A stretch of DNA of 64,000 bases from NCBI GenBank assembly GCA_902793375.1, contig CADBDE010000001.1:157807-221806 (forward strand), given 5' to 3'. The position numbers were made by a program, and so were the translations under genes. The notes beneath the pieces were generated by a model, which worked only from the letters and a program-made list of their open reading frames with translations, had not been told where the DNA came from and did no database searches. The stretch comes from an uncultured Erysipelotrichaceae bacterium. Lineage in GTDB: Bacteria > Bacillota_I > Bacilli_A > RF39 > UBA660. Shown one piece after another: positions 4,369-23,759 of this stretch. Each line of letters begins with the position of its first letter. Position 1 is the first letter of the stretch.

Positions 4369-4936
4369 TTATAGTTTTATCTACTATTCCATATTCTTTA
4401 GCTTGTTTAGCATCCATGTAAAAATCTCTATCTGTATCCTTTTCAATTGTACTTAATTTTTGATTTGTTTTACTTGCTATTATTTTATTAAGTTTATTTT
4501 TTATTTTTTGAATATGTTCAGATACAATCATTATTTCGCTAGCTTGCCCTTTTACCCCTCCAAGAGGTTGATGAATCATTATTTCACTATTTTCGAGGGC
4601 AATTCTTTTTCCTTTTGCACCAGATAATAAAATAAATGCCCCCATTGATGCTGCTAGACCAACACAAATTGTAGATACTTCACTTTTAATATAATTCATT
4701 GTGTCATATATAGCTAAACCTGATGATACTTCGCCACCAGGACTATTAATATATAAATAAATATCTTCATGATTTATAGAATCAAGATAAAGCATTTGTG
4801 CGATAGTGCTATTAGCTAAATTATCATCTATTTCACCACTAATAAAGATTATTCTGTCTTTTAGCAATCTTGAAAAAATATCATAGCTTCTTTCTCCATT
4901 TATCTCTTTATCTACAACTATTGGAATCAAATTCAT
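4352..4936 (-). CDS. clpP: ATP-dependent Clp protease proteolytic subunit ClpP
   Basis: [12 protein letters not shown]-terminus and the catalytic triad context ([19 protein letters not shown]); the ORF track's start at 4945 is trimmed to the conserved N-terminus. Confidence 0.95.
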
Positions 4937-5042
4937 CAGTATCACCTATAATTATATTAGTTTGATTTTTTTAATAATATACATAAATTTGTTTTATTAT
5001 TTAAAAATTTATGATAAAATCAAATAAGAATAGAGGGATTAT

Positions 5043-9058: not shown

Positions 9059-10077
9059 TGAAGAATACTAAGAGAAATACAATTATATTATTAATAATAT
9101 GCATGATTGTATTGTATTTTGTAGTTAAAGATGACTTTGCAAATATAATGGATAATTTAATATTGGCTAACAAATGGTTAATATTATTGAGCGTGTTGTT
9201 AATTGTTGGTTATTGGCTTTTGAGATCATTAGCTCTTTTTATTGTTGTAAAAAAATATAAAAAGAATATAAAATATTCAAAAATGTTGCATCAAATTCTT
9301 ATAACACAATTTTTTAATGGAATTACGCCATTTGCTACTGGTGGAGAACCAATGCAGGTGTATATGCTTAAAAAAAGTGGAGTAAAAGTTGCACAAGCTA
9401 CAAATATAATAGTTCAAGAGTTTATTATGTATCAAATGGCACTTGTTTTAATGGGAGTAGTATGTTTAATACTAAATTTTATATTTAATATATGCGAAGT
9501 TTCTCCTTTTTTAGCAAATCTTATTATACTTGGTTTCATAATAAATATTGCAATTGGATTAGTATGCATATTTGTAAGTTTTTCAAAAAGATTTAGTAAA
9601 TTTGTTGTAAAAATAAGTTTAAAAATTGGAACTAAGTTAAAACTAATAAAGAATGTGGAAAAAACAACAGAAGTATGGAATGAAAAAGTAGAAGAATATA
9701 ATGAAAGTGGAACAATGTTGAAAGAAAATAAGAATTTGTTTTTTACTTGTGTATTAATAAACTTTGCAGCTTTATTTACACTTTATTTAATACCATATTT
9801 TGTATTCTTAAGTTTAGGTTACCATGTTGGACTAATGGAGGTTATAGTGTCTTCTGCATTTATCTTATTAGTTGGAAACTTTGTACCAATACCTGGAGGT
9901 AGTGGGGGAATTGAATTTGCATTCTTGGAATTCTTTAAATATTCATTACCTGATATTGATGAAAGAAGTGCAATACTTAAATCAGCACTTATTGTTTGGA
10001 GAGGAATAACTTACTTTTTAGGAATAATAGTAGGTGGGGTTGCATTTGGATTATTTAAAGGAGATGAAAATAAATGA
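9058..10077 (+). CDS. Flippase-like / lysyl-phosphatidylglycerol-synthase-TM-region family (UPF0104) integral membrane protein
   Basis: 339 aa with ~8 predicted TM helices and the characteristic GGEPMQVYML and PIPGGSGGIEFAF motifs; ATG overlaps the pgk stop (taATGa). Confidence 0.7.
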   Translation: MKNTKRNTIILLIICMIVLYFVVKDDFANIMDNLILANKWLILLSVLLIVGYWLLRSLALFIVVKKYKKNIKYSKMLHQILITQFFNGITPFATGGEPMQVYMLKKSGVKVAQATNIIVQEFIMYQMALVLMGVVCLILNFIFNICEVSPFLANLIILGFIINIAIGLVCIFVSFSKRFSKFVVKISLKIGTKLKLIKNVEKTTEVWNEKVEEYNESGTMLKENKNLFFTCVLINFAALFTLYLIPYFVFLSLGYHVGLMEVIVSSAFILLVGNFVPIPGGSGGIEFAFLEFFKYSLPDIDERSAILKSALIVWRGITYFLGIIVGGVAFGLFKGDENK

Positions 10078-11348
10078 GAATAGGATTATTCACTGATACC
10101 TATCCTCCATTTATAAATGGAGTATCTACTAGTGTCTTTATGCTAAAAAAAGCCCTTGAAAGACAAGGACATCAAGTTTTTGTTGTTACAATGAATAATG
10201 AAACATTTCATTATGGATTTGATGAGGATGATACAGTTGTAAGAATACCTGGACTTCCTATTGGAATCTATGACTATCGTGTGTCTACAATTTATCCGCT
10301 AAAAGCTGTTAATATAATTAGAAAGTGGAAATTAGATGTAATACACTCTCATACTGAGTTTAGTGTAGGAACATTTGCAAGATTTATTTCAAGACAATTT
10401 AATATTCCACTTGTACACACATATCATACTTTGTATGAAGATTATGTATACTATATTACTAAAGGATATTTTGATAAACCTAGTAAAAAAATTGTTGAAT
10501 ATTTAACTCAGTTTTATTGTGATAAAACTGCTAATGAATTAATTGTTCCAACTAAAAAAATATATGATTTAATAAAAGAAAAATATAATGTAGATAAAAA
10601 TATTTATATTATACCAACTGGAATAGAAGTAGATAGATTCTATTCAGAAAATGTTAAGTCAAAAGATGTTGAAGTATTAAGAAAAAAATTGGATATTTCT
10701 AAAAAAGATTTTACTATTATATTTGTTGGTAGAATGGCAAAAGAAAAGAATGTTGATTTACTTTTATCTGCTCAAAAGAAAATTAATGATAAAGATAAAA
10801 ATGTTAAACTTCTTATGGTTGGAGATGGGCCTGATTTAGATGAATATAAAGAAACTGCAAGGAAACTTGGAATTGAAAAAAATGTAATTTTTGCTGGTAA
10901 AGTTCCTTGGGAGGATGTTCCAAAATATTATCATTTAGCTGATGTATTTGCAACTGCTTCTACTAGTGAAACACAAGGACTAACTGTTATTGAAGCAATG
11001 GCTGCATCTATTGCACCAATATGTATAAATGATGAAAGCTTTAGAAATACAGTAGTAGATGGATACAATGGTGAAATATTTAAAGATGAAGATGAATATG
11101 TATATGTAATAAATGATTTAAAGTCAAACAAGAAAAAACTTGAATTGCTTCAAAAACAAGCTAGATTAAATGCAGAAATTCATAGTTCTAAATATTATGG
11201 AGAACGTGTTGAATCAGTTTATAAACATGCAATAGAAAACAAGAAATATGATAATTATGGAGTAATAGGAAAACTTGTTGGAAGAATAAAGAATAGGGAG
11301 AAGAAAGATGAAACTAGTAGTAGGAAATCAAAAAACATATCTAAATAG
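10074..11348 (+). CDS. GT4-family glycosyltransferase, alpha-monoglucosyl-diacylglycerol-synthase-like (1,2-diacylglycerol 3-glucosyltransferase-like)
   Basis: N-terminus MRIGLFTDTYPPFINGVSTSV is typical of alMGS/GT4 lipid glycosyltransferases; C-terminal GT4 EX7E region (TSETQGLTVIEAMA); 4-nt overlap with the flippase-like gene. Confidence 0.75.
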   Translation: MRIGLFTDTYPPFINGVSTSVFMLKKALERQGHQVFVVTMNNETFHYGFDEDDTVVRIPGLPIGIYDYRVSTIYPLKAVNIIRKWKLDVIHSHTEFSVGTFARFISRQFNIPLVHTYHTLYEDYVYYITKGYFDKPSKKIVEYLTQFYCDKTANELIVPTKKIYDLIKEKYNVDKNIYIIPTGIEVDRFYSENVKSKDVEVLRKKLDISKKDFTIIFVGRMAKEKNVDLLLSAQKKINDKDKNVKLLMVGDGPDLDEYKETARKLGIEKNVIFAGKVPWEDVPKYYHLADVFATASTSETQGLTVIEAMAASIAPICINDESFRNTVVDGYNGEIFKDEDEYVYVINDLKSNKKKLELLQKQARLNAEIHSSKYYGERVESVYKHAIENKKYDNYGVIGKLVGRIKNREKKDETSSRKSKNISK

Positions 11349-12027
11349 ACAAGATGTTGTTAATTTTATTAATAAGACTAGAGAAGGTCATTGTGAAAAT
11401 GTAATTATATGTGCTAGTTTTCCATATATTGATTTATATATAGAAGATTCAAATTATATAATTGGTGCACAAAATGTTTCTGTCAAAGGGAATGGTGCAT
11501 CAACTGGGGAAATAAGTGCAGAACAGTTAAATTCTTTAGGAGTTTCTTATTCAATTGTCGCTCATTCTGAAAGAAGAAGTGATAATAAAGAAACTAGTGA
11601 AATGTTTGTAGACAAAATTAATAACTTAGTTAAATATGATATTAGACCAATATTTTGTATTGGAGAAAATCTAGATCAAAGAGAAGCAAATACTACAAAG
11701 GATATTGTTGGAAGACAAATTATAGAAGTATTTGATAAATTAAATAAAGAGGATTTGGAAAAGATAGTAGTAGCTTATGAACCAGTATGGGCAATTGGTA
11801 CAGGAAAAGTTCCAACAAATGATGAAATTGAAGATATGACAAATTATATTAAAGATTTAATTCAAGATAAATATGGAGCTCGTGTACTTGTTCTTTATGG
11901 TGGAAGTGTTAATGAGAAGAATATTGATGAATTAAATCAAATAGAAACAGTAGATGGTTATTTAATAGGAGGAGCTAGTACAAAACCAGACGAATTCCTA
12001 TATATAATGAGCAAATGTGAGAAATAG
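11308..12027 (+). CDS. tpiA: Triose-phosphate isomerase (N-terminal GNQKTY instead of the canonical GNWKM)
   Basis: AHSERR, AYEPVWAIGTGK and YGGSV motifs are present; the start overlaps the GT4 gene end by 41 nt. Confidence 0.9.
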   Translation: MKLVVGNQKTYLNRQDVVNFINKTREGHCENVIICASFPYIDLYIEDSNYIIGAQNVSVKGNGASTGEISAEQLNSLGVSYSIVAHSERRSDNKETSEMFVDKINNLVKYDIRPIFCIGENLDQREANTTKDIVGRQIIEVFDKLNKEDLEKIVVAYEPVWAIGTGKVPTNDEIEDMTNYIKDLIQDKYGARVLVLYGGSVNEKNIDELNQIETVDGYLIGGASTKPDEFLYIMSKCEK

Positions 12028-12045
12028 TTGTATAAATTTATAAAA

Positions 12046-12052
12046 TTCGACA
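12046..12052 (-). promoter_or_regulatory. Spo0A box (TGTCGAA on the minus strand) ~95 nt upstream of spo0A
   Basis: ttcgaca is the exact reverse complement of the 0A-box consensus TGTCGAA; position is consistent with spo0A autoregulation. Confidence 0.45.
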
Positions 12053-12145
12053 AAACTTTACATAACTAGCTAATATTTGCTATGTACTTTAATTTTATCC
12101 TTAACTATAATAATAATTGCGTGCAGGAAAAAGAAAGGATAAAAA

Positions 12146-12913
12146 ATGAATAACATTAAAGTGCTTGTAGTTGATGATAATCAAGATTTGGTTAATGAAA
12201 TTAAGAAGTATTTTAGTGATCACGCAAATATCAATGTATCTTTAGAAGCCAATGATGGCGTTGAGGCTCTAAAATTGATTAAGGAGTATCAAAGTGATTA
12301 CGACGTAGTAATTTTAGATTTAGTAATGCCAAAAAAAGATGGATTAGATGTTTTAGAAGAAACGAAAGGATTAAATCTTAATAAAAAGATTATAGTAATT
12401 TCTTCATATAATTCAGATGAAATGATTAGAAAAGTTTCTAATTATGGAATTGATTATTTTATAGTAAAACCTTTTGATATGTCTAATTTAGAAAAGAAGA
12501 TATTAAATTGTTTTGACTATAAAAAGAATAATAAAATAGTAGATATATTTCATAATAATTTACAAATATCTGTAACAAGAATATTACATGAATTAGGAGT
12601 TCCTTCACATATTAAGGGATATCAGTATATTAGAGAAGGTATAATGTTAATATATGATAATCCAGAGTTTATTGGAGGAATAACAAAAGCTTTATATCCT
12701 GATATTGCTAGGACTTTTGATACAACAGTATCAAGAGTGGAACGTGCGATAAGACATGCAATAGAAGTAAGTTGGAATAGAGGAAATTGGGATCTTATGG
12801 AAGAAATATTTGGACATAGTGTAGATATTGATAAAGCAAAACCGACTAATTCAGAATTTATTGTAACTGTTGCAGACAAGCTAAGATTAGATTATTGTAA
12901 AAATGTAATATAA
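12146..12913 (+). CDS. spo0A: Sporulation master regulator Spo0A (response-regulator receiver + Spo0A_C DNA-binding domain)
   Basis: Receiver residues ([22 protein letters not shown]) and the diagnostic C-terminal segment [12 protein letters not shown]...[34 protein letters not shown]...KPTNSEFI. Confidence 0.9.
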
Positions 12914-12926
12914 CTTGGAGGTATTT

Positions 12927-13523
12927 ATGCTAGTAAATGAATATGGTGAGCAACTTGATGGATATGGTAGAACAGAAAAAGAAATCTATGAATCACTAGA
13001 GGATGATTTTGAAATACCAAAAGATTTTGAAAATGCCAGTGATGAAGATGATTTAAAATTAGATTTCTATTTTATGGAAGATGATGCTAATGAATTATTA
13101 GCTAATATTGGATTAGAGCAAAATATGGATTTTTTAGAATATCCAAGAGCGCAATTATTAAGAATATTTAGATATTATCATGCAAAATCAGAAAAGGTTG
13201 TTAATGGGAAAAAAGAATATGTTGATCCTTTTCCAAATTATAAAGCTGAAAACGAATCTTTTGAAAAAGAAATGTTTAAGTTTGGATATCTTTTAGGAAA
13301 AGAAGGAAAAGTAGGCATTTATTATAGACTTCTTCCAAATTTTCAATTTAGAAGAGGATATTGGGTTGGAAAAATGGAAAGATATGTTGAATTAAATGAT
13401 GATAATGTTTTACGTGAATTAAGTAAAGAGATAAAAATTTATGATGCTTTAAAAGCTGATGAAGAAATGGGATTCATAGTTGATAATATTTTTAAGGAAG
13501 ATGAAAAAGAAAAAACAAGATAA
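12927..13523 (+). CDS. hypothetical acidic protein (~198 aa) co-transcribed with spo0A
   Basis: ORF begins 14 nt after the spo0A stop with a GGAGG RBS; no recognisable domain; the terminator follows. Confidence 0.6.
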   Translation: MLVNEYGEQLDGYGRTEKEIYESLEDDFEIPKDFENASDEDDLKLDFYFMEDDANELLANIGLEQNMDFLEYPRAQLLRIFRYYHAKSEKVVNGKKEYVDPFPNYKAENESFEKEMFKFGYLLGKEGKVGIYYRLLPNFQFRRGYWVGKMERYVELNDDNVLRELSKEIKIYDALKADEEMGFIVDNIFKEDEKEKTR

Positions 13524-13558
13524 ACTGAGAATAGACTCAGTTTTATTTTTTTTATAAA
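13523..13558 (+). terminator. Rho-independent terminator ending the spo0A-ORF198 unit
   Basis: aactgag-aataga-ctcagtt followed by ttttatttttttt. Confidence 0.8.
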
Positions 13559-13624
13559 TAAAATAAGTTAAACTTGTTTTTGATAGAGAAAAAAACTATA
13601 ATTATATTAGAGAGTTGGTGTCAT

Positions 13625-15265
13625 ATGAATAATAAGAATATAAACAATTCAAATAAAGATGTAATTAAGGCAATTATTATTTGTATTTTATTTTTTGTAG
13701 GATTTAATATACTAATAGTTATAGAACAAGAATCAAGAAATAAAGGTAGTGATTCTTCAAGATATACTTATAATGATAGTGTTTTTAGTATTATTACTAC
13801 TCCTGAGAATAAAGTATTAGAAGATACTATAAAAGATTATGCTGATAAAAATGATTTTGATGTAGAAATTGTTTATGCAGATAATCTAGAAATTGTTGAT
13901 AAACTAAATAGTGGAGAAAAATATGATGCAATATGGGCATCAAATTCTATATGGCTTGATTTAGTAGATTCAACAGTAAAAACAAGTAACTTAAAATCAA
14001 CTAATATTACTCCAATTGTATTTGGAATTAAGAAAAGTGTTGCAGAAAGACTTAATTTAATTAATAGAGATGTTACGATGCAAGATTTACTTTCTCTAAT
14101 TAAAAACGGAGAATTAAAATTTAGTATGGCTAACCCTATCATGACAAATAGTGGGGCTTCAGCATATTTTAATATTTTATCAACTTTAGCAGGGAACCCA
14201 GAAGTGTTAACTTTGGATCATTTAAAAGACGAAACTTTAAGAAGTAATTTAAAAGCTTTTTTTAAAGGACTAGAGAGAACATCAGGAGATGAAGACTTTT
14301 TAGAAGAATCATTTATAAATGGTGATTATAATGCCGCAGTTACTTATGAATCATCAATAATTAATATTAATAAGAAATTAGAAGCAGAGAATAAAGAAAT
14401 ACTATACGTAATATATCCTGTTGATGGAGTAACATTTTCTGATTCACCACTTGTATTTGTAAATAATGGATATGATGATAAGAAAAAAACATTCTTAGAA
14501 TTTCAATCTTTTATTCTTGATAAAGAAGGACAAAATGAACTTGCTTCTTTAGGAAGAAGAACTTGGTATGGTGGAGTAACTGATAAAGCAGATTCTAATT
14601 TGTTTAAAAAAGAATGGGGAATAGATACTACAAAGTATGTATCATCTGTTAAATATCCAAGTAAAGAAGTAATTAAAGAAGCTTTAAGATTATATCAAGA
14701 AGAATTAAGAAAACCAATTCATGTTGTATTTTGTTTAGATTATTCAGGTAGTATGTCAGGACAGGGAATTGAAGAGTTAAGAGCAGCTACAAATTTTATA
14801 TTTGGAGAATCTGCAAAAAGTAGTATGATTCAATTTTCTCGTTATGATAAGATTGATGTAATATTATTTAATGACAGCATATCATTTTTGAGTAAAGATG
14901 GTGAACAAATAACAGGAGAAAATGTTCAGCTATATACTGATTACTTAAATCGTACTTATCCAGGAGGATCTACAGCACTTTATCCGGCAGTTGCTGAAGC
15001 TTTAAAAAAATTAAAAGAAGAAATAAATGATGAATATAATTTATCTGTAATAGTTATGACTGATGGTGAAGGAAATGTTGGATCTTATTATGAAGTATCA
15101 AATGTATATAAAACACTAACTAAGGAAATTCCAATTTATTCAATAACATTTGCGGACGCTGATGATTCTCAATTAAGTTTACTAGCTTCACTAAGTAATG
15201 GGAAAGTATTTGATGGAAGAAAAGATTTATTAAAAGCATTTAAAACAGTAAGAGGATATAATTAG
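13625..15265 (+). CDS. Membrane-anchored fusion protein: N-terminal TM helix, periplasmic-binding-protein-like (SBP-like) domain, and C-terminal von Willebrand factor A (vWA) domain
   Basis: TM anchor AIIICILFFVGFNILIV; the SBP-like region is paralogous to ORF 15892-17091; vWA MIDAS motif VVFCLDYSGSMSG...VIVMTDGEGN. Confidence 0.7.
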   Translation: MNNKNINNSNKDVIKAIIICILFFVGFNILIVIEQESRNKGSDSSRYTYNDSVFSIITTPENKVLEDTIKDYADKNDFDVEIVYADNLEIVDKLNSGEKYDAIWASNSIWLDLVDSTVKTSNLKSTNITPIVFGIKKSVAERLNLINRDVTMQDLLSLIKNGELKFSMANPIMTNSGASAYFNILSTLAGNPEVLTLDHLKDETLRSNLKAFFKGLERTSGDEDFLEESFINGDYNAAVTYESSIININKKLEAENKEILYVIYPVDGVTFSDSPLVFVNNGYDDKKKTFLEFQSFILDKEGQNELASLGRRTWYGGVTDKADSNLFKKEWGIDTTKYVSSVKYPSKEVIKEALRLYQEELRKPIHVVFCLDYSGSMSGQGIEELRAATNFIFGESAKSSMIQFSRYDKIDVILFNDSISFLSKDGEQITGENVQLYTDYLNRTYPGGSTALYPAVAEALKKLKEEINDEYNLSVIVMTDGEGNVGSYYEVSNVYKTLTKEIPIYSITFADADDSQLSLLASLSNGKVFDGRKDLLKAFKTVRGYN

Positions 15266-15272
15266 GTGATTT

Positions 15273-15899
15273 ATGAAGAATAAAGAGATTGTATCTGGTT
15301 TAATTGGAGCGTCGTTCTTTGCGATTGGTTATTTAGGATTATCTATTGCAGCACTTCCTGCTCTTGCTGTTGGTACAGGAGCTTATGTTGCAAGTGAACT
15401 TCTTCTAAGTGGTAAAAAAGATATGGAAGAAGAATTTGGGACAATACCATTATCAAAAAGAATTGAAAAGGCAAGAAAAGACAATAAACATATAAGTGAT
15501 TTAATTAAGGAAATAGAAGATGAAGAATTACAAAAATATTTAAATGATATAAGTAATTCTTCTACTAAAATAATTAATACCATAGAAAAAAATAAGATTG
15601 ATAATAAAACATCTAATAAATTTATGGACTATTATCTTCCTGTTTGTGTTAATATATTAGATAGATATGATGACATAGAAAATCAAAAATTAACTTCAAA
15701 AGATAGTAAGAAGTTTATGGATAATAGTCACAAGATTATAAAAGAAACGTCTCTAGCATTCAAAAAAATATTAAATAGTTTGTATCAAAATGATATTGAG
15801 AATAATGAAGCAGAAATGAAAGTATATAATCAAATGTTAAAATCAGATGGTTATAATGCTAGTGAGATAGATGTGAAAGATGGTGATGAAGATGAATAA
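15273..15899 (+). CDS. XpaC-like (5-bromo-4-chloroindolyl-phosphate-hydrolysis-family) membrane protein
   Basis: ~208 aa with two N-terminal TM helices then a helical soluble region, the size and topology of B. subtilis XpaC; immediately upstream of a TelA-like gene as in the Bacillus xpaC-yaaN pair; AGGTGA RBS. Confidence 0.5.
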   Translation: MKNKEIVSGLIGASFFAIGYLGLSIAALPALAVGTGAYVASELLLSGKKDMEEEFGTIPLSKRIEKARKDNKHISDLIKEIEDEELQKYLNDISNSSTKIINTIEKNKIDNKTSNKFMDYYLPVCVNILDRYDDIENQKLTSKDSKKFMDNSHKIIKETSLAFKKILNSLYQNDIENNEAEMKVYNQMLKSDGYNASEIDVKDGDEDE

Positions 15900-17091
15900 A
15901 AAACAAATAATAGGTATATTAATATTTGTAGTATTAGTAGGAGTAATAATTGGAATAAAGGCTTGCTCTTCTGGAGAATCTGGTGGGATATTTAGTGGAC
16001 CATTAACAGATGTTTATGTTGCTACAGGTGGTGGAAAAGAAGATTTTTTAGCAGATGAGGAAGTTATTAAAATATTAAAGGACAAATATAAACTTAATGT
16101 TGTATATGATACTTGGAGTAATGGTAAAACAATTACTTGGCCATTAATAAGAGAAAAAGTTGGCGAAGGAAATAAAGATATAGTTAGTAGAATGTCTAAT
16201 GGAGAAGAATTTACTATTAAGTCAGTTGGAGTATCTACATATGATGCTTTATTCACTTCTGATCAAAGATTTTATGATTATTACAAATTATTTCCAAATA
16301 AAGATAATAACGAGTCTGATAGATATACTGTATTAGATGGAGGATTAACCCTTAATACACCAATAGTGATTTATAGTTGGGGACCTGTTGTAGATTCTTT
16401 AATAAAAGAAAATATAGTAACAGAAGAAAATGGAGTATACTTCATATCAGATATGGATAAATTAATGAATTACATTTTAATTAGTAAAAAGTGGAAAGAT
16501 GTTGGTTTAACAGATTTATATGGAAGTATTAATATTGCTTCAACCGATCCAGTGTCATCTTCTCCTGGTGCTACTTACTATGGTCTATTACTTGCAATTT
16601 TGTCAGGAGGAGAAGTAACAACAGACAATATTCAAAATAATCTACCTAAGTTGAAAGACTTTTATATTAAGTCAGGATATATGAATAACACACCAGCTGA
16701 CTTGTTTGAAAGATATTTAAAAACAGGTATGGGTGGAAATGCAATGATTGTTGATTATGAAAAAAGTATTATCGATTTTGCAAACTCTAATCCAAATGGT
16801 TTTGAACAGGTAAAAGATAGCATAAGGATTCTTTATCCAAAACCAACTATTTGGAATAGTCACTGCTTTGCAGCATTTACAGAAAATGGTAAAAAGTTAT
16901 TAGAGGCATATAATGATCCAGAAATACAAAAAATAGCATGGGAAAAATATGGATTTAGAACAGGTATTACTGGTGGAAGTTATGATGTTTCAAAACTTGG
17001 ACTTGGAATACCAAAAGAAATAACAAGTACAGTAACATCTTTAAAGATGGATACATATAATGAATTAATAAATTATTTGAAGGGAAATTAG
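15892..17091 (+). CDS. Membrane-anchored periplasmic-binding-protein-like (SBP-like) protein, paralogous to the N-terminal domain of the vWA fusion protein
   Basis: N-terminal TM/signal segment (IIGILIFVVLVGVIIGIKACSS); similar to 13625-15265 (VYDTWSNGKTITWPLI vs YDAIWASNSIWLDL); the start overlaps the XpaC-like stop. Confidence 0.6.
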   Translation: MNKKQIIGILIFVVLVGVIIGIKACSSGESGGIFSGPLTDVYVATGGGKEDFLADEEVIKILKDKYKLNVVYDTWSNGKTITWPLIREKVGEGNKDIVSRMSNGEEFTIKSVGVSTYDALFTSDQRFYDYYKLFPNKDNNESDRYTVLDGGLTLNTPIVIYSWGPVVDSLIKENIVTEENGVYFISDMDKLMNYILISKKWKDVGLTDLYGSINIASTDPVSSSPGATYYGLLLAILSGGEVTTDNIQNNLPKLKDFYIKSGYMNNTPADLFERYLKTGMGGNAMIVDYEKSIIDFANSNPNGFEQVKDSIRILYPKPTIWNSHCFAAFTENGKKLLEAYNDPEIQKIAWEKYGFRTGITGGSYDVSKLGLGIPKEITSTVTSLKMDTYNELINYLKGN

Positions 17092-17095
17092 AATT

Positions 17096-18250
17096 ATGGA
17101 ATTAAAAGTTGAAAAAATGGAACAAAAAGAATTAGAAAAGTTGGCAGATATTAAAGATGTTGGAAATGAAAAAGAAATTGAATCATCTTTAAATTATGAT
17201 ACTCTAACTGCAGATGAGAAAAAAGCAATTGACAAATTTAATAAAGAAATTGATATTAATGATCAAACTCAAGTAATTCAATTTGGTAATGCTGCCCAGG
17301 AAAATATTTCTAAATTTAGTGATTCAGTACTTGAAAAAGTAAGAACTAAAGATGCTGGAGAAACGGGTGAATTATTAAGTGAATTAGTATCAGAAATTAA
17401 ATCATTTGATAAAGCAGTAGATGATTCTACTAAACTTAGTTTTTTAGAAAAAATATTTTCTAGTGCTAAAAAGAAATTTGATAAATTGATTGCAAAATAT
17501 AATAAGATTGAAAACAATATTTCAACAATTGAAAAAGGTTTAGAAAAAGATAAACTTTTAATGTTAAAAGATATTAACATTTATGACAATATGTATCAAA
17601 AGAACTTAGAATATTTTAAAGAAGTATCTTTATATATAATTGCAGGAGAAAGAAAAATTGAAGAATTAAAAAATAATGATTTAGTTAAATTAAAAGAAAA
17701 AGCTGCTAAATCAAAAGATCAACTAGATGCACAAAAAGTAAATGACTTGGAAAATGCAATTAATAGATTAGAAAAGAAAATATATGATTTAAAAACAACT
17801 CGTGTTATATCTCTTCAAATGGCTCCTCAAATAAGATTATTACAAAATAATGATGCAGCACTTGTTGAAAAAATTCAAAGTTCAATGACAAATACAATTC
17901 CATTATGGAAGAATCAAATGGTTTTAGCCCTTGGTATAAATCATTCAAAAACTGCTTTAAAACATCAACAAGAAATATCTAAAGTTACTAATGATATGTT
18001 AAAGAAAAATAGTGAAACTTTGAAACAAGGATCTATTAAAGTTGCAGAAGAAAGTGAAAAAGCTATCGTTGATGTTGAAACTCTTAAGAAAACAAATCAA
18101 GATATTATTGAAACTCTAGATAAGATTATAGAAATTCATGAACAAGGAAAAGTTAAACGTGCTGAATCTACTAAAGAACTTGAAAATATTGAAAAAGAAT
18201 TAAGAGAGAAAATGTTAGAAATTAAACAAGATAAAAAGGATAGTGAATAA
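17096..18250 (+). CDS. TelA/YaaN-like toxic-anion-resistance family protein
   Basis: 384 aa coiled/helical protein with a TelA-family N-terminal region (LTADEKKAIDKFNKEIDINDQTQVIQFGNAAQENISKFSDSVL) and matching length and composition. Confidence 0.7.
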   Translation: MELKVEKMEQKELEKLADIKDVGNEKEIESSLNYDTLTADEKKAIDKFNKEIDINDQTQVIQFGNAAQENISKFSDSVLEKVRTKDAGETGELLSELVSEIKSFDKAVDDSTKLSFLEKIFSSAKKKFDKLIAKYNKIENNISTIEKGLEKDKLLMLKDINIYDNMYQKNLEYFKEVSLYIIAGERKIEELKNNDLVKLKEKAAKSKDQLDAQKVNDLENAINRLEKKIYDLKTTRVISLQMAPQIRLLQNNDAALVEKIQSSMTNTIPLWKNQMVLALGINHSKTALKHQQEISKVTNDMLKKNSETLKQGSIKVAEESEKAIVDVETLKKTNQDIIETLDKIIEIHEQGKVKRAESTKELENIEKELREKMLEIKQDKKDSE

Positions 18251-18277
18251 TCCTTTTTTTCTAATTAAGAGGTATTT

Positions 18278-19867
18278 ATGAATAATATTGATTTAAGTAA
18301 AATGTATGATGATTTTTTTGGAGACAGTTTAGTAAAAAATACTTCTTTTGAAGAATACCTTGATTCTGAAAAAGATAATAAAGAAGAAGTTGAAAATATT
18401 GATATAGATAGTATTCTTTTAGATAATGATTCAAAAGAACTACTTAAAAAAATTATTAAATATACTAAAGATTATGAAGAAGGAACTGTAAGTAATTATA
18501 TTAACTTTAATATATTATTTAATTCTAATAATAAAGAAACAAAAGATTTAGTAATAGGAGCATTAAAAACAGTTTCTAGTAAATATTTATTAAATTATAA
18601 TGTTAAAGAAATATCTTTATATGATTATAATAAAAATACAGATCTTGAAAAAATGTTTGAAAATGGAATAGTAATAATTAAAGATTTAAAAGCATTTGGA
18701 CTTTTAGATGAACAAGATAAAACTATATTTATGTTTAATTTTAAAAAATATTTAATTGATAAAAGAATAGTTATATTATTTGATGAAAACCAAAATATAG
18801 ATAATTTTTTAACTTATGATAGAGAATTAAAATCTAAATATTTTAATTTTAAAATAAATGGAATTAATCCTGATATTCAAGATGTATATAATCAAGTACT
18901 AGATAAAGTTAAAATAGAAGAAGATAAAAAAGTTTCTTTATTAGATTATATTACTAGTACTTATTTAAAAACTGATGATGACTTTTTAACATATAGAGAT
19001 AAACTAATTAATTATATTTCTTTCAATAATGATATTCCAGTATTAAGTAAATCTAAAACAAATGAAGAAATATTTAAAGAATTAGATGAATTAGTAGGTT
19101 TAAAAGATGTTAAAAAGGCATTAAATGATTTAGTAAATTTAATTGGATTAAAATCAAAAACTGAAAAAGATTTAAAAATTAAAGATATAAATTTACATAT
19201 GTTATTTTTAGGAAATCCTGGAACAGGAAAAACAACTGTTGCTAGATTATTATCTGGAATATTATATAATTTAGGTTATATAAAAGAAGATAAACTATTA
19301 GAAGTTTCTTCAAAAGATTTAGTAGCAGAGTTTGTAGGACAAACAGCTCCTAAAACTAATGCAGTTGTAGAACGAGCAAAAGGTGGAATACTATTTATTG
19401 ATGAAGCATATGCTCTTGCAAGTGATGGAAGTAATTCTTATAATGATGAAGCAATAGCTACTTTAATAAAGTGTATGGAAGATTTTAGAGATGATTTAGT
19501 AGTTATATTTGCTGGTTACACAAAAGAGATGCAAGCGTTTTTAAATTCAAATTCAGGTATTGTATCAAGAATTGGATATACCTTAAATTTTGCTGATTAT
19601 ACAGTTGATGAATTAATACAAATATTTAATCAAATGATTAGTAAGGCAGGATTTAAAATAACAGATGGAGCTCTTAATAAAGTTAAAAAAATAATAGAAG
19701 ATAATATTGGAACTAAAAACTTTGGTAATGCAAGATTTGTTAGAAATATGTATGAAAAAACAGTAGTAAGACATGCTACTAATACAAAAGATAAGAAACA
19801 AAAAGAAAAATTAATAACTATTACTGAAGATGATATTAATATTGATAATTTAATTAGTGAAAAATAG
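18278..19867 (+). CDS. AAA+ ATPase of the CbxX/CfxQ/SpoVK family with a ~260 aa N-terminal extension
   Basis: C-terminal AAA domain with Walker A FLGNPGTGKTTVARL, Walker B ILFIDEAYAL and sensor/Arg-finger region VVIFAGYTKEM...SRI, typical of SpoVK/CbxX. Confidence 0.8.
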   Translation: MNNIDLSKMYDDFFGDSLVKNTSFEEYLDSEKDNKEEVENIDIDSILLDNDSKELLKKIIKYTKDYEEGTVSNYINFNILFNSNNKETKDLVIGALKTVSSKYLLNYNVKEISLYDYNKNTDLEKMFENGIVIIKDLKAFGLLDEQDKTIFMFNFKKYLIDKRIVILFDENQNIDNFLTYDRELKSKYFNFKINGINPDIQDVYNQVLDKVKIEEDKKVSLLDYITSTYLKTDDDFLTYRDKLINYISFNNDIPVLSKSKTNEEIFKELDELVGLKDVKKALNDLVNLIGLKSKTEKDLKIKDINLHMLFLGNPGTGKTTVARLLSGILYNLGYIKEDKLLEVSSKDLVAEFVGQTAPKTNAVVERAKGGILFIDEAYALASDGSNSYNDEAIATLIKCMEDFRDDLVVIFAGYTKEMQAFLNSNSGIVSRIGYTLNFADYTVDELIQIFNQMISKAGFKITDGALNKVKKIIEDNIGTKNFGNARFVRNMYEKTVVRHATNTKDKKQKEKLITITEDDINIDNLISEK

Positions 19868-19913
19868 ATTCTTATACTCAAAAAGAGTTTTTCTTGTAAT
19901 GATATTATTGTTT

Positions 19914-19944
19914 AGTCATAACGAAAAAAGTTATGACTTTTTCT
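19914..19944 (+). terminator. Rho-independent terminator (perfect 9-bp stem agtcataac/gttatgact, loop gaaaaaa, T-run)
   Basis: agtcataacgaaaaaagttatgactttttct located 47 nt after the AAA gene stop. Confidence 0.8.
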
Positions 19945-19948
19945 ATGC

Positions 19949-19977
19949 TTGACTATTTCAAATAATGATATTATAAT
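19949..19977 (+). promoter_or_regulatory. Sigma-A-type promoter (TTGACT, 17 nt spacer, TATAAT) upstream of the DUF4143 ATPase and gpmI
   Basis: ttgactatttcaaataatgatattataat. Confidence 0.55.
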
Positions 19978-20011
19978 TTAAAGTAAGAAAAATGGTGTTG
20001 GAGGACAGTTT

Positions 20012-21286
20012 ATGGAGCGTAAAATTGTAAAATTCCTAGAACATTGGCAAATTGATGAAAATAGAAAGCCATTAGTGATATATGGTGGAAAACAAGTTGG
20101 TAAGACTTATACTGTACTAAAATTTGGAGAAGAAAACTTTTCAAATGTAGTTTATGTTGATGCAAATGACAATAAAGAATTAATTGAGACTTTGAAAAAA
20201 CAAAACACTATTGATGGGATAATTAATTCCTTGTCTGATATTACTAAAGAAACAATAGAAAAAAATATAACTTTAGTAGTTATTGATAATGTTAATGATG
20301 TTGAAATTGTTGATACTATTAAAACTATTGGTAAATTTAAAAATGAATATCATGTAATTTTAATTACATCTTTAAGAGAAAATTTATCTAAGTTTAAAGG
20401 TATAGAACTTCAATTTAAATCTATGCTTCCAATGGATTTTGAAGAATACTTAACAGCACTTGGAAAAGAAGAGCTAATTGAGTTTATTAAAAGTTCATTT
20501 AAAAATAATTCAAAAATGCCTTTTCATAAAGTTGCAATGGAGTATTATAACTCGTATATGAAAACTGGAGGAATGCCTGAAGCAGTTGATTTATCTATAA
20601 GAGATGAAAATCAATTATTATTAAACTCTGTATTTGATAAAATTATTGATTCATATAAAAAAGAAATATCATTACAAGAAAACTTAATTGATATTTATAG
20701 AAGTAATGAAGTTTATAATAGTATTTCACAACAATTAACTAAATCTAATAAAAAGTTCCAATATGGACTTATTAAAGATGGTGGAAGAAGTAAAGAATAT
20801 GAAAATGCTTTAAACTTTTTACATAATAATGGCTTTATTTATAAATGTTATAAATTAACTGAAGTTGTATCCCCAATTAGTAATTACAAAGATAAAGATT
20901 GTTTTAAAGTGTATTTAAATGATACTGGACTTTTGTATAAAAATTTAAAAATAAATCATAATATTTTTGAAACTGATGAAAATATAAGACAAGTATTATA
21001 TGAAAATAGTGTTGCTGTTTCATTATTTAGTAGTGGATATAATTTATTTTATTACCAATCAGATGGTAAAGCCTTTATTGATTTTGTTATTCAAACAAGA
21101 ACAGGAAGAATTATTCCAATTGAACTTGTTCCATATAGTAAGACAAAATCAAAAGCATTATCAGTTTATATAAACAAATATAAACCTAGTGAAGCAATTA
21201 GAATAACTCAAGATAATTTTTGTATTAAAAAAGGAGTTAGATATATTCCAATTTATGCAACATTTTGTTTAACTGATTTAGTATAG
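20012..21286 (+). CDS. AAA-superfamily ATPase (AAA_14 + DUF4143 architecture)
   Basis: Walker A IYGGKQVGKTYTV and Walker B LVVIDNV; C-terminal DUF4143-like region; GGAGG RBS. Confidence 0.7.
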   Translation: MERKIVKFLEHWQIDENRKPLVIYGGKQVGKTYTVLKFGEENFSNVVYVDANDNKELIETLKKQNTIDGIINSLSDITKETIEKNITLVVIDNVNDVEIVDTIKTIGKFKNEYHVILITSLRENLSKFKGIELQFKSMLPMDFEEYLTALGKEELIEFIKSSFKNNSKMPFHKVAMEYYNSYMKTGGMPEAVDLSIRDENQLLLNSVFDKIIDSYKKEISLQENLIDIYRSNEVYNSISQQLTKSNKKFQYGLIKDGGRSKEYENALNFLHNNGFIYKCYKLTEVVSPISNYKDKDCFKVYLNDTGLLYKNLKINHNIFETDENIRQVLYENSVAVSLFSSGYNLFYYQSDGKAFIDFVIQTRTGRIIPIELVPYSKTKSKALSVYINKYKPSEAIRITQDNFCIKKGVRYIPIYATFCLTDLV

Positions 21287-21295
21287 GAGGAATTT

Positions 21296-22813
21296 ATGAA
21301 CAAATTAGTATTACTTATTTTAGATGGATGTGGAATAAGAGAAGAAAGTGATGGAAATGCTTTTAAAAATGCTAATAAACCAACATTTGATATGCTATTA
21401 AATAAATATCCACATTCAATATTACAAGCAAGTGGAAAAGCTGTTGGGCTTCCTGATGGTCAAATGGGAACTAGTGAAGTAGGGCATATGAACCTTGGAA
21501 GCGGAAGAGTAGCTTTACAACCACTTGAAGCAATAACTGAATCAATAGAGAATGGATCTTTATTTGAAAATGAAAAAATACTTGAAGTATTAAATCATGT
21601 AAAAATTAATAATTCAAATCTTCACTTTATGGGATTATTATCTGATGGTGGAGTCCATTCTCATATAAATCATTTACTTGGACTTATTGACATGTGTAAG
21701 AAAAATAATGTTACAAATGTTTATTTTGATTTATTTATGGATGGAAGAGATACATATGAAAAAAGTGCTCTTAAGTATTTAGATGTTTTAAATAATAAAA
21801 TAAAAGAAGTTGGATTTGGTAAAATCTCTACAATTTCAGGAAGATACTATGGAATGGATAGAGATGATAATTATGATAGATTAAAATTATCTTATGATGC
21901 TATCTGCTATGGAGAAGGACCAAAATATAATAGTTATAAAGAATTAATTGATGAAAACTACAATAATGGTAAATATGATGAATTCTTAATACCAGGACTT
22001 GTTGACAATTGTCCTTTAAATGATAATGATGGAGTAATTACATTTAACTTTAGAAAAGATAGGTTAAGAGAAATGTTTACTTTATTTACTAATCCAGATT
22101 TTTATAAAGATAAATGTGAAGAAAAAGGATTAAAGATTAAAGAATTTAGTAATTTAAAAGTATTAACTATGTTTCCTGTTGTGGAATCGGTATTGGCTCC
22201 ACATGCATTTAACGATTTAGATATGAAAAATATTATGGTTGATTATCTTCATGAAAATCATATTAGTCAATTAAGAATTGCTGAAACTGAAAAATATGCC
22301 CATGTTACATTCTTCTTTGATGGAGGACGTGAAGTAGAATATGATGATATGAAGAAGATTTTAATACCTTCTCCAAAAGTAGCTACTTATGATTTACAAC
22401 CTGAAATGAGTGTATATCCTGTAACTGATAAATTTTTAGAAGAAGTAGGAAACTATGATGTTACTATTATGAACTTTGCAAATGGAGATATGGTTGGACA
22501 CACAGGAAATTATGATGCTGCAAAAGAAGCAGTAGAAGATATGGATAAATGCATTGAAAAAGTATATAACAAGGTGGTTGTAGAACTTGGTGGAACTTTA
22601 ATCATTATTGCAGATCATGGTAATTGCGATATGATGTGGGATGAAAATCATAATCCAGTAACTAGTCATACAACAAATCCAGTTCCTTGTATAATTACTA
22701 AGGAGGGAATTGAATTAAAAGATGGAAAACTAGCTGATATAGCACCAACTATGCTTAGCATACTTGGACTTCCAGTACCTGATGAAATGAATGGAGAATG
22801 TTTAATAAAATAA
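21296..22813 (+). CDS. gpmI: 2,3-bisphosphoglycerate-independent phosphoglycerate mutase
   Basis: 505 aa with the iPGM Ser-phosphotransfer motif (DGCGIRE...TSEVGHMNLGSGR) and metal-binding motifs (ADHGN, GDMVGHTG); AGGAGG RBS 10 nt after the upstream gene. Confidence 0.95.
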   Translation: MNKLVLLILDGCGIREESDGNAFKNANKPTFDMLLNKYPHSILQASGKAVGLPDGQMGTSEVGHMNLGSGRVALQPLEAITESIENGSLFENEKILEVLNHVKINNSNLHFMGLLSDGGVHSHINHLLGLIDMCKKNNVTNVYFDLFMDGRDTYEKSALKYLDVLNNKIKEVGFGKISTISGRYYGMDRDDNYDRLKLSYDAICYGEGPKYNSYKELIDENYNNGKYDEFLIPGLVDNCPLNDNDGVITFNFRKDRLREMFTLFTNPDFYKDKCEEKGLKIKEFSNLKVLTMFPVVESVLAPHAFNDLDMKNIMVDYLHENHISQLRIAETEKYAHVTFFFDGGREVEYDDMKKILIPSPKVATYDLQPEMSVYPVTDKFLEEVGNYDVTIMNFANGDMVGHTGNYDAAKEAVEDMDKCIEKVYNKVVVELGGTLIIIADHGNCDMMWDENHNPVTSHTTNPVPCIITKEGIELKDGKLADIAPTMLSILGLPVPDEMNGECLIK

Positions 22814-22832
22814 TTATCTTTGGGGTGATACT

Positions 22833-23759
22833 ATGAATCTAAATCAAGAGAATATAAATGATTTCTTGAATAAATATATATCTTTTGTAGATGAAATAAG
22901 TGAGAATAATAATTATGACAATAATATAAGGCACTTATTATATGTAATTGTTCCCTCATTTGTTATTAAATATGGAATTAATAATGAATTAACAATTAAG
23001 GAATGTTTCAAAAATATAAAAGTTTATGTAAGAGAGCATCCAGAATATATTCAAGCAGCATTTAATAGAACTTTAAAGAAAAAAGATAATAACTATTATA
23101 CTGAAAAATATATTACAGTTAATCCATTTACAAATTCTTCTTTATCAGTTATTCTTGATAACTTTATTCATGAATTTAATCACGCCATTAATTCATATAA
23201 TAATGAGATTATTCTTAAAGATGATATGATCAAAATTAGAACAGGTCTTTCTACTTTAAATTACAATAGAGAAGATATGTCATTTATTGAAAAATCAGAA
23301 GAGATAGTATTAGAAGAACTATTAAATACTTCTCAAACTGAAGAAATCTTTAATATAATAAAATCATTTAATAAATTTAATATTGATAATCAAGAATTAT
23401 CAAATACCTTATATAATGTTAAACAAGAAAATAATGTAAAAGATTATGAGTCAGAAGCATATTATTATCAAAAAAAGATTTGTGAAAGATTAATTAACAA
23501 CAAAACATTTACTCCAACAATTAATAATCTTAGATTTAAGGGTTTTATTGAAGACATTCCAAATTTATTTGATAATGTTACAGGAGATAAAAATGATTAC
23601 AAAAAATTGAATGATTTACTTAATGATATGCATACAATGATATTAAAGTACTCAGAAAGTAAATTGTTTAAAGGTAAATATTTGTCTAAAATAAAAGAAC
23701 TATCAAATGGTGTTACTAGAATAATTGATGATTATGAAAAAAAGTGTATTTTTAAGTAG
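22833..23759 (+). CDS. hypothetical protein with a single HExxH motif (IHEFNHAIN); possible zinc-metallopeptidase-like
   Basis: 308 aa N/K-rich ORF with a GGGGTGA RBS; HEFNH at residues ~113-117; no other recognisable domain. Confidence 0.5.
   Translation: MNLNQENINDFLNKYISFVDEISENNNYDNNIRHLLYVIVPSFVIKYGINNELTIKECFKNIKVYVREHPEYIQAAFNRTLKKKDNNYYTEKYITVNPFTNSSLSVILDNFIHEFNHAINSYNNEIILKDDMIKIRTGLSTLNYNREDMSFIEKSEEIVLEELLNTSQTEEIFNIIKSFNKFNIDNQELSNTLYNVKQENNVKDYESEAYYYQKKICERLINNKTFTPTINNLRFKGFIEDIPNLFDNVTGDKNDYKKLNDLLNDMHTMILKYSESKLFKGKYLSKIKELSNGVTRIIDDYEKKCIFK

Follow-up and report, generated by a model that had tools for sequence, protein, structure and literature searches.

A cluster of five co-directional genes (positions 13625-19867) lies in a 64,000-nucleotide stretch of DNA, here called the window, from an uncultured Erysipelotrichaceae bacterium (assembly GCA_902793375.1, contig CADBDE010000001.1, positions 157,807 to 221,806). 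The genes, g1 to g5 (Table 1), encode a membrane-anchored solute-binding protein (SBP) domain fused to a vWA domain, an XpaC-family protein, a second SBP-fold protein, a TelA-family protein and an AAA+ ATPase. We lean towards reading the locus as a transmembrane envelope-stress or ligand-sensing module organized around the XpaC-TelA pair and equipped with an AAA+ remodeller.

Table 1. Features of the five-gene cluster and its boundaries (positions in the window; aa, amino acids; TM, transmembrane; SD, Shine-Dalgarno sequence)
Feature	Position	Strand	Description
Terminator of the upstream spo0A-orf202 unit	13522-13553	+	8-bp stem and T-run; 5' boundary of the operon
Sigma-A-type promoter	13574-13602	+	TTGTTT-17 nt-TATAAT; predicted from sequence
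SD in the short g1 leader	13610-13620	+	GAGAGTTGGTG; from sequence
g1	13625-15265	+	546 aa; TM anchor, SBP_bac_11 and MIDAS vWA
g2	15273-15899	+	208 aa; XpaC family, PF10112
g3	15892-17091	+	399 aa (403 if the start is 15880); TM anchor and SBP-fold domain
g4	17096-18250	+	384 aa; TelA (toxic anion resistance) family, PF05816
g5	18278-19867	+	529 aa; AAA+ ATPase, AAA and AAA_lid_6 after an N-domain
Operon-closing terminator	19914-19948	+	9-bp stem and T-run

The five reading frames are tightly spaced, with intergenic distances of +7, -8, +4 and +27 nucleotides (nt). A preliminary description of this DNA, made from the sequence without database searches, had proposed a five-gene operon, and the co-directional frames, their spacing, the promoter and the terminators on each side bear this out. 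Its range of -8 to +28 nt for the gaps needs correcting at the upper end, and the bounding terminators that it called strong are indeed there as hairpins with T-runs, but the label is too generous: the upstream hairpin (13522-13543; -8.5 kcal/mol, z -2.7) and the downstream one (19914-19938; -10.6 kcal/mol, z -3.7) are adequate for a genome of 27% GC. Five terminator-like sites were found in the scanned 8.5 kb (12500-21000) against 0.9 +/- 1.0 in shuffled sequences. Ahead of g1, the pattern TTGnTT-17-TATAAT is kept in five related loci (L037, L042, L054, L002 and L003; related loci are numbered with the prefix L) despite otherwise diverged intergenic sequence. Since terminators stand on both sides and the g1 promoter pattern is kept in relatives, the cluster looks like one predicted sigma-A-driven transcription unit. 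The promoter scan also returned an overlapping alternative, TTGATA-17-TATATT at 13580-13608, and an Rfam search of positions 11000-23000 returned no RNA family.

From Pfam matches and hydropathy, the g1 protein consists of a signal-anchor TM helix (residues ~16-34), a type-II SBP domain (~50-345) and a vWA domain (~366-529), with matches to SBP_bac_11 (E 1e-10, 42.1 bits, cut-off 25), SBP_bac_8 (33.2 bits, cut-off 27) and VWA (E 3e-13). The metal-ion-dependent adhesion site (MIDAS) of the vWA domain is intact (D372-Y-S-G-S376, T450, D480), and its residues (D372-x-S-G-S, T450, D480) show no change across the 13 aligned homologues, which come from four phyla (Firmicutes, Betaproteobacteria including Variovorax, Deinococcus and Streptomyces). 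In searches of the PDB with the family profile, the vWA domain was closest to extracellular vWAs (ITIH, CLCA1, alpha2delta, BatB), and the SBP domain gave weak matches to ModA and to iron SBPs; NCBIfam added a weak cobaltochelatase match for the vWA domain. Behind the signal anchor, both domains of g1 are predicted to lie outside the membrane, in agreement with the extracytoplasmic MIDAS vWA of the preliminary description.

The g3 protein has one N-terminal helix by hydropathy and no family match in Pfam or NCBIfam. Aligned with the SBP domain of g1, it gives a pairwise E of 4e-5 and an hhalign probability of 99% (E 7.8e-18 over 260 columns), and an [ST]-N-[ST]-G motif is common to the two; these alignments make g3 and the g1 SBP domain genuine paralogues, as had been proposed. 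The AlphaFold2 (AF2) model of g3 is poor (pLDDT 55), with best Foldseek matches that are nearly all SBPs and not significant, and a PDB profile search with g3 gave no match. The window protein has a cysteine in lipobox-like position (Cys25, IKAC), yet only 3 of 40 close orthologues carry the lipobox cysteine, and for that reason g3 is more likely to be held by an uncleaved signal-anchor helix than by lipid; the earlier term 'lipoprotein' does not stand. At 90% identity, more than 2,190 clusters of g1 homologues were found; those of g3 number 3,597, all unnamed, and with more than 3,500 clusters the g3 family is a large one without an entry in Pfam or NCBIfam.

Between and after these two genes lie the members of the XpaC-TelA pair. 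The g2 protein matches PF10112 (Halogen_Hydrol/XpaC; E 3.7e-17, 63.4 bits, cut-off 29.8) over profile positions 5-190 of 191, and hydropathy suggests an N-terminal hydrophobic hairpin (~10-45) of two TM segments with both ends predicted inside, which would leave its helical domain in the cytoplasm. The g4 protein matches PF05816, TelA, over 331 of 332 profile positions (E 3.9e-115, 384.9 bits, cut-off 30); it has no TM segment by hydropathy and is accordingly placed in the cytoplasm, and a sequence search for a solved homologue found none. The telA gene lies downstream of xpaC on the same strand and in the same terminator-bounded unit, with g3 between them. Profile searches above cut-offs thus assign SBP and VWA to g1, XpaC to g2, TelA to g4 and AAA to g5, the families that the preliminary description had named for checking.

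XpaC has a historical 'X-phosphate hydrolysis' phenotype, and xpaC and yaaN both reportedly appear in a study of the sigma-W regulon of Bacillus subtilis. The same PF10112 and PF05816 families share one operon, in the same order, in xpaC-yaaN of Bacillus, lmo1966-lmo1967 of Listeria and xpaC-telA of Enterococcus faecium, and with both families above threshold the window locus is, by sequence, of this XpaC-TelA kind. It differs in that the pair is split by g3, with g1 ahead and the AAA+ gene after, none of these three being present in the studied pairs. The known pairs respond to or protect against envelope-active agents (nisin, poly-L-lysine, garvicin, daptomycin). In E. faecium, deletion of xpaC brings an 8-fold drop in the daptomycin minimum inhibitory concentration and a redistribution of anionic lipid domains, both of which depend on an intact telA, XpaC being genetically epistatic to TelA (PMC6811118). 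A telA mutant of Listeria shows raised sensitivity to nisin (PMC12791056, citing Collins 2010), and a membrane-active bacteriocin induces lmo1966-67 (PMC12791056). Because loss of xpaC acts only with telA intact, the published genetics fit a role of XpaC as a controller of TelA.

The last gene, g5, encodes an AAA+ module of the CbbX/SpoVK/EccA clade at residues 262-529 (nt 19061-19864), with PF00004 and AAA_lid_6 matches and a marginal AAA_5. Walker A (GNPGTGKTT), Walker B (DE), an aromatic-hydrophobic-Gly pore loop (E-[FY]-V-G), an arginine finger and sensor 2 (GNAR) are intact, as in classical-clade AAA+ proteins, and every catalytic and pore-loop residue is kept without change in 48 orthologues, so the module is active-looking at the level of sequence. 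Its best NCBIfam match is SpoVK (TIGR02881, 257.6 bits, cut-off 422.95), followed by CbbX (TIGR02880, 225.3 bits, cut-off 459.25) and EccA (TIGR03922, 196.4 bits, cut-off 466.65); because g5 scores below all three cut-offs, it shares their clade by sequence yet equals none of them. Nor is there a Rubisco, type VII secretion or spore context around g5, and its N-terminal 260 residues form a separate domain. The N-domain of EccA is a tetratricopeptide repeat domain, unlike that of g5, and CbbX and SpoVK are not known to have such an N-domain. Homologues of g5 form 7,830 clusters, mostly driven by the generic AAA module.

That SpoVK gives the best match (258 bits), and that spo0A lies 0.7 kb upstream, could point to a sporulation-linked morphogenetic operon in which the AAA+ protein is SpoVK and its neighbours build the spore envelope under Spo0A. 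We consider this very improbable, as g5 is far below the 423-bit SpoVK cut-off while CbbX and EccA score similarly, SpoVK of B. subtilis is not known to have a comparably long N-terminal domain, the promoter is of the sigma-A type and not of the sigma-E, sigma-K or sigma-G type, spo0A is adjacent only in the closest relatives (L001-L003, L037, L041, L054), and the core of the module is present in non-sporulating phyla. An AAA+ protein and a MIDAS vWA in one operon are also a hallmark of MoxR/vWA, CbbQ/CbbO, NorQ/NorD and ChlI/ChlD, in which light the ATPase would be a chelatase-like chaperone that loads a metal or matures a complex through the MIDAS, and the weak cobaltochelatase match of the g1 vWA goes in that direction. 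The ATPase belongs, however, to the CbbX/SpoVK clade (PF00004 and AAA_lid_6) and not to MoxR, the vWA is predicted outside and the ATPase inside so that the two could not touch directly, and in most lineages the vWA protein occurs without this AAA+ protein, all of which makes such a pair extremely improbable.

In the AF2 model of g5 (48 orthologues, pLDDT 80), an N-terminal helix is followed by a disordered linker (residues 15-39), a folded N-domain and a canonical AAA+ module. The N-domain, alpha/beta with helical parts (residues ~44-255, nt 18407-19042), has no Pfam match and no PDB sequence match, so that the ~260-aa N-terminal domain without family assignment noted earlier proves to be a genuine folded unit in the model. 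It occurs in 50 of 1.84 billion cluster representatives and directly precedes AAA in all six of the representatives checked with Pfam, with AAA_lid_6 following in five and the sixth sequence being cut off. Its modelled order of secondary structure, alpha0-beta1-alpha1-beta2-beta3-alpha3-beta4-beta5 plus a helical lid, parallels that of the C-terminal AAA module in each element, and an hhalign comparison of the two, although non-significant (E 0.19), pairs its strands with those of Walker A, Walker B and sensor 1, the glycine-rich loop being missing from the N-domain. From the model we infer that the N-domain may be a degenerate D1-like AAA module, probably nucleotide-dead. Ahead of the linker, residues 1-14 (window 18278-18320) form a helix with invariant Y10, D12, F13 and F14 in 48 of 48 orthologues, which could be a docking peptide.

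Scans of genomes and metagenomes gave 111 related loci (31 and 80), to which the counts below add three plasmid-record loci; counts are restricted to loci with enough sequence (with room). The related loci all come from gut or rumen metagenome-assembled genomes or metagenomes labelled Bacilli, Erysipelotrichaceae, Clostridia, Lachnospiraceae, Oscillospiraceae or Tissierellia, with a few Muribaculaceae and Thermoflexaceae labels. Gene order is largely kept: g1 precedes g3 in 78 of the 81 loci with room, the other three, all from outside the Firmicutes, being arranged differently; in 60 of 75, TelA is the gene directly after g3; and the AAA+ gene accompanies TelA in 45 of 50, adjacent in 42 and with genes inserted between in three. 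XpaC-family genes also come next after g1 in L017, L022, L025 and L028. Loci of Lachnospiraceae, Oscillospiraceae and Tissierellia (L025, L026, L030) hold g1-XpaC-g3-TelA without the AAA+ gene, which alone among the five is lineage-specific. The preliminary description had allowed that the order might prove to be a common, already annotated operon such as a sporulation locus; related genomes do often share the order, but without annotation, and it corresponds to no known sporulation locus. Averaged over 48 five-gene loci, g3 is 74% identical to its window counterpart, TelA 69%, AAA+ 54%, g1 52% and XpaC 48%, and by this highest identity the Pfam-less g3 is the most constrained member of the operon.

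In two sister lineages a gene for an SPFH/Band_7_1 (YdjI-like) protein lies directly after g3, in the TelA slot (L018 13301-14263 and L021 12269-13243). In B. subtilis, PspA is tethered to the membrane by YdjI, a member of this Pfam family (PMC8581546), and because a protein of the YdjI family replaces TelA in these loci, the swap suggests by analogy that TelA may fill a membrane-scaffold or membrane-protection slot. In the PspA-YdjG/H/I and PspA/SPFH systems a soluble helical effector is recruited by small membrane proteins, as we propose here; the window operon differs from them in having no PspA/IM30 domain, TelA being a different family. In a large comparative study of PSP systems the term TelA has a count of 0 (PMC11237479).

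The junctions on either side of telA are also where extra genes are found. Mostly Pfam-less genes lie between telA and the AAA+ gene or between g3 and telA in several relatives (L002 14545-18561; L006 14873-17980, minus strand; L072, L073 and L116 ~9556-10233; L079 8698-9720, minus strand), with the flanking operon genes retained, and both junctions seem to tolerate cargo.

Outside the Firmicutes, tblastn against plasmid and megaplasmid records found g1-like proteins that RefSeq names 'substrate-binding and VWA domain-containing protein'. This is an annotation label only, for which no function, partner set or publication turned up; the proteins that bear it share the TM-SBP_bac_11-vWA architecture of g1 and its conserved MIDAS. 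Six records (three from Variovorax, one each from Sphaerotilus, Deinococcus and Nonomuraea) have a g1 match over 86% or more of the query, and in every one of them a g3 homologue lies at most ~3 kb from the g1 homologue; g3 itself finds its non-Firmicute counterparts with pairwise E of 5e-21 and 3e-25. Variovorax and Sphaerotilus have the order g3-like, TelA, SBP-vWA and a ~210-aa protein, and Deinococcus has the same set without TelA. The ~210-aa proteins are mutually homologous (E 1e-12 to 1e-35) and have the XpaC-like layout of an N-terminal two-TM hairpin and a helical domain. The metagenome scan, with a narrower g3 alignment, gave only close relatives; the cross-phylum census is a handful of plasmid and chromosome records. 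Within that scope, Variovorax and Sphaerotilus keep TelA in the module in another gene order, so that the linkage appears functional rather than historical: judged from these sequences, the four-part core is old, widespread and rearranged yet kept together, which is good evidence for joint function. On the Sphaerotilus plasmid (L118 4849-14598) the module lies between genes for a PhoX phosphatase and an ExeM/NucH extracellular nuclease, and on a Variovorax plasmid (L032 1-15452) a flotillin gene is nearby and a Wadjet system ~3 kb away.

The preliminary description had called the gene set not a described combination, and this holds for part of it. The front end of SBP-vWA protein and SBP paralogue is a recognised architecture, with a RefSeq name, more than 2,190 clusters and a gene set that recurs in Variovorax, Sphaerotilus and Deinococcus (there without TelA), whereas the AAA+ protein with its private N-domain is a lineage-specific addition for which we found no description. 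By its gene content, then, the operon is an extended version of a four-gene module present in several phyla. Literature searches for the SBP-vWA protein name or for the combination of TelA, vWA and SBP found nothing relevant.

These distant relatives also bear on the question of whether g1 and g3 are simply orphan SBPs that capture a solute (an oxyanion, phosphate or a metal, for example) for a transporter whose genes lie elsewhere, with TelA and XpaC merely co-transcribed. The g1 matches to SBP_bac_11 and SBP_bac_8 exceed the Pfam cut-offs, the weak ModA and iron SBP matches and the phosphate-scavenging genes on both sides of the Sphaerotilus module are in keeping with uptake, and in L028 a MacB/FtsX-type ABC system lies ~0.6 kb downstream. 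Compared with the SBPs of ABC transporters, g1 and g3 have the type-II SBP fold but lack a cognate permease and ATPase: L028 is the single exception among more than 100 related loci, nearly all of which, like the window operon and its flanks, have no such gene. Moreover, g1 and g3 are both TM-anchored and always paired, a transporter SBP has no need of a vWA fusion, and the linkage with XpaC and TelA survives cross-phylum rearrangement of gene order. We therefore think an uptake role improbable.

Ter clusters with TerY vWA proteins and TelA/YceH (terZABCDE; Bacillus yceC-H) likewise combine a TelA-family protein and a vWA in one stress-associated, membrane-linked locus (Bacillus arrangement, PMC9240799). 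None of the five genes or their immediate flanks matches TerB, TerC or TerD, however, and the g1 vWA, which follows a signal anchor and an SBP domain and is predicted outside, is of a different kind from TerY, there being no kinase or phosphatase in the operon; identity with a Ter cluster was rejected on these two grounds. TerY is not known to be fused to an SBP or to carry a membrane anchor, and its partners are a kinase/PP2C pair. A comparative-genomics study of Ter and TelA from 2012 reportedly linked TelA to PBP-II domains and proposed membrane sensory complexes, centred on TelA and TerB, in which such domains may take part.

The operon had earlier been taken as an acquired module, inserted among glycolytic genes, and a defence role had been considered. 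The evidence says that it is not a recent acquisition: its GC content is 25.3% against 26.7% for the window, its borders hold no mobile-element, integrase or transposase genes, its five-gene order recurs in 45 of 50 related loci with room, and its context is kept in relatives. The window order is gap-pgk-(LPG-synthase-like and GT4)-tpiA-spo0A-orf202-operon-DUF4143-gpmI, of which the part from tpiA to the operon is kept in relatives with 62-73% g1 identity (L001-L003, L037, L041, L054), and in more distant relatives the operon lies beside other housekeeping genes, for example ffh (L017, L022).

An anti-phage or 'Ter-type' defence module, in which TelA and the vWA sense infection at the envelope and trigger a protective or abortive response, might still be argued from the historical ties of TelA and ter genes to phage inhibition and colicin resistance, from the PADLOC candidate (PDC-S01) matched by the DUF4143 ATPase downstream, from the Wadjet system near the Variovorax module and from the small cargo genes inserted within relatives' operons. 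To these may be added the TelA homologues found in 119 phage records; such occurrence fits the known content of phage genomes and says nothing on the five-gene module. PADLOC found no match for g1-g4 and only weak generic AAA matches for g5 (IetA 2e-8, TRIP13), no g1 relative was found in viral contigs, TerB, TerC and TerD are absent from the operon, and the vWA is predicted to be extracellular, unlike TerY. With housekeeping surroundings (tpiA, spo0A, gpmI; ffh in L017 and L022), a sigma-A-type promoter and vertical conservation over deep divergence as well, we regard defence as quite unlikely, and the defence, transporter, MoxR-vWA and sporulation readings were all set aside as the main explanation on the counter-evidence given for each. 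One of the phage records, L117 (MT835937.1, 'UNVERIFIED Bacteriophage sp.', human faeces), carries an xpaC-like and telA pair at 4813-6335, with 47% identity to g4 and without g1 or g3, and the best TelA matches in the phage collection include several similar unannotated faecal 'phage' scaffolds.

The envelope-stress or ligand-sensing module that we favour, which was also suggested in general terms by the preliminary description, builds on gene order, domains, topology signals, paralogy, conserved motifs and the co-occurrence of the parts across phyla. From these we infer a ligand, physical contacts, a direction of signalling, an AAA+ substrate and a physiological output as follows. The g1 and g3 ectodomains would stand outside on single helices, the XpaC hairpin would sit in the membrane, and the XpaC helical domain, TelA and the AAA+ protein would lie inside. 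The SBP pair might bind an extracellular cue, with a small anionic ligand or a molecule derived from the envelope as the likeliest candidates, while the MIDAS of the vWA would make a metal-bridged contact to a partner protein or polymer. The resulting change would be relayed to XpaC through helix-helix contacts in the membrane; given the topology, packing of the g1 and g3 anchors against XpaC would be the sole route from outside to inside. XpaC would then govern whether TelA acts, and at which sites on the inner face of the membrane, and the AAA+ protein may remodel or recycle TelA or XpaC-TelA assemblies. The presumed output is tolerance to membrane- or cell-wall-active agents, as for TelA and XpaC in Listeria and Enterococcus. 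Three weak hints point to an anionic ligand, namely the kinship with SBP_bac_11, the historical X-phosphate phenotype of XpaC and the PhoX and nuclease neighbours in Sphaerotilus.

Several observations weigh against parts of this scheme. TelA seems not to be obligatory in cis, since some lineages (L017, L022, L023, L028, L029) hold the g1-XpaC-g3 triad without an adjacent TelA or SPFH gene. Features of TelA specific to AAA+-bearing operons, the C-terminal tail included, were sought and none was found; as TelA of these operons is not distinguishable from others, the choice of TelA as AAA+ substrate is a guess. For the ~210-aa partners in Proteobacteria and Deinococcus, homology to XpaC was not demonstrable (hhalign E 0.011, in the TM region only). 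The assignment of the SBP as an oxyanion or iron binder comes from weak sequence matches, and that of the N-domain as a dead AAA module from the order of its secondary structure and the non-significant in-register alignment described above.

A bolder and, in our view, unlikely extension of the module is that TelA might be a self-assembling scaffold that protects or remodels membranes in the manner of PspA, ESCRT-III or SPFH proteins, commanded from outside by the SBP-SBP/vWA pair through XpaC and disassembled in a Vps4-like way by a two-tier AAA+ protein with a dead D1-like and an active D2 module. If true, it would supply the long-missing mechanism of TelA and XpaC together with a defined input signal, and a Vps4-like recycling step acting on a protein outside the ESCRT family.

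TelA and XpaC occur widely among Gram-positive pathogens, where they affect tolerance to nisin, daptomycin and other envelope-active agents, and it is for this enigmatic pair that the locus is of value, as it suggests a plausible input for the pair and an enzyme that could plausibly recycle it. In this locus and its cross-phylum relatives, TelA and XpaC are often linked to two conserved extracytoplasmic binding-protein domains and a MIDAS vWA, and in one gut and rumen lineage also to a dedicated AAA+ protein. This gives several handles: the ligand of the SBP pair as a candidate input, XpaC as a candidate adaptor, the AAA+ protein as a candidate recycling enzyme, and the TelA-SPFH swap as a hint at the job of TelA.

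The surroundings of the operon in the window gave some further observations. Between the operon and gpmI, positions 20012-21286 (+) encode an ATPase with AAA_14 and DUF4143 domains whose match to PDC-S01 is full-length (E 1e-109); the gene has its own promoter match (11/12, sigma-70) at 19949-19977 and is conserved in L001 and L002. Upstream, an acidic 202-aa reading frame at 12915-13523 (+), with no Pfam or NCBIfam match, starts 1 nt after spo0A and shares a common terminator with it; weakly conserved copies follow spo0A in L001, L037, L041 and L042. Over positions 6673-32745, genes related to the envelope are interspersed among the glycolytic genes gap, pgk, tpiA, gpmI and a PGI-like gene; the envelope-related ones include those for an LPG_synthase_TM-like protein and a GT4 glycosyltransferase (overlapping tpiA by 41 nt), the TelA operon and the gene for a 2,557-aa GH94/cyclic-beta-1,2-glucan-synthase-like protein (23874-31547). 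The exact g1 protein was found on metagenome contigs of up to 290 kb, with no cultured source seen. In the whole window, with a GC content of 26.7%, 50 of the 52 open reading frames of at least 150 aa are on the + strand.

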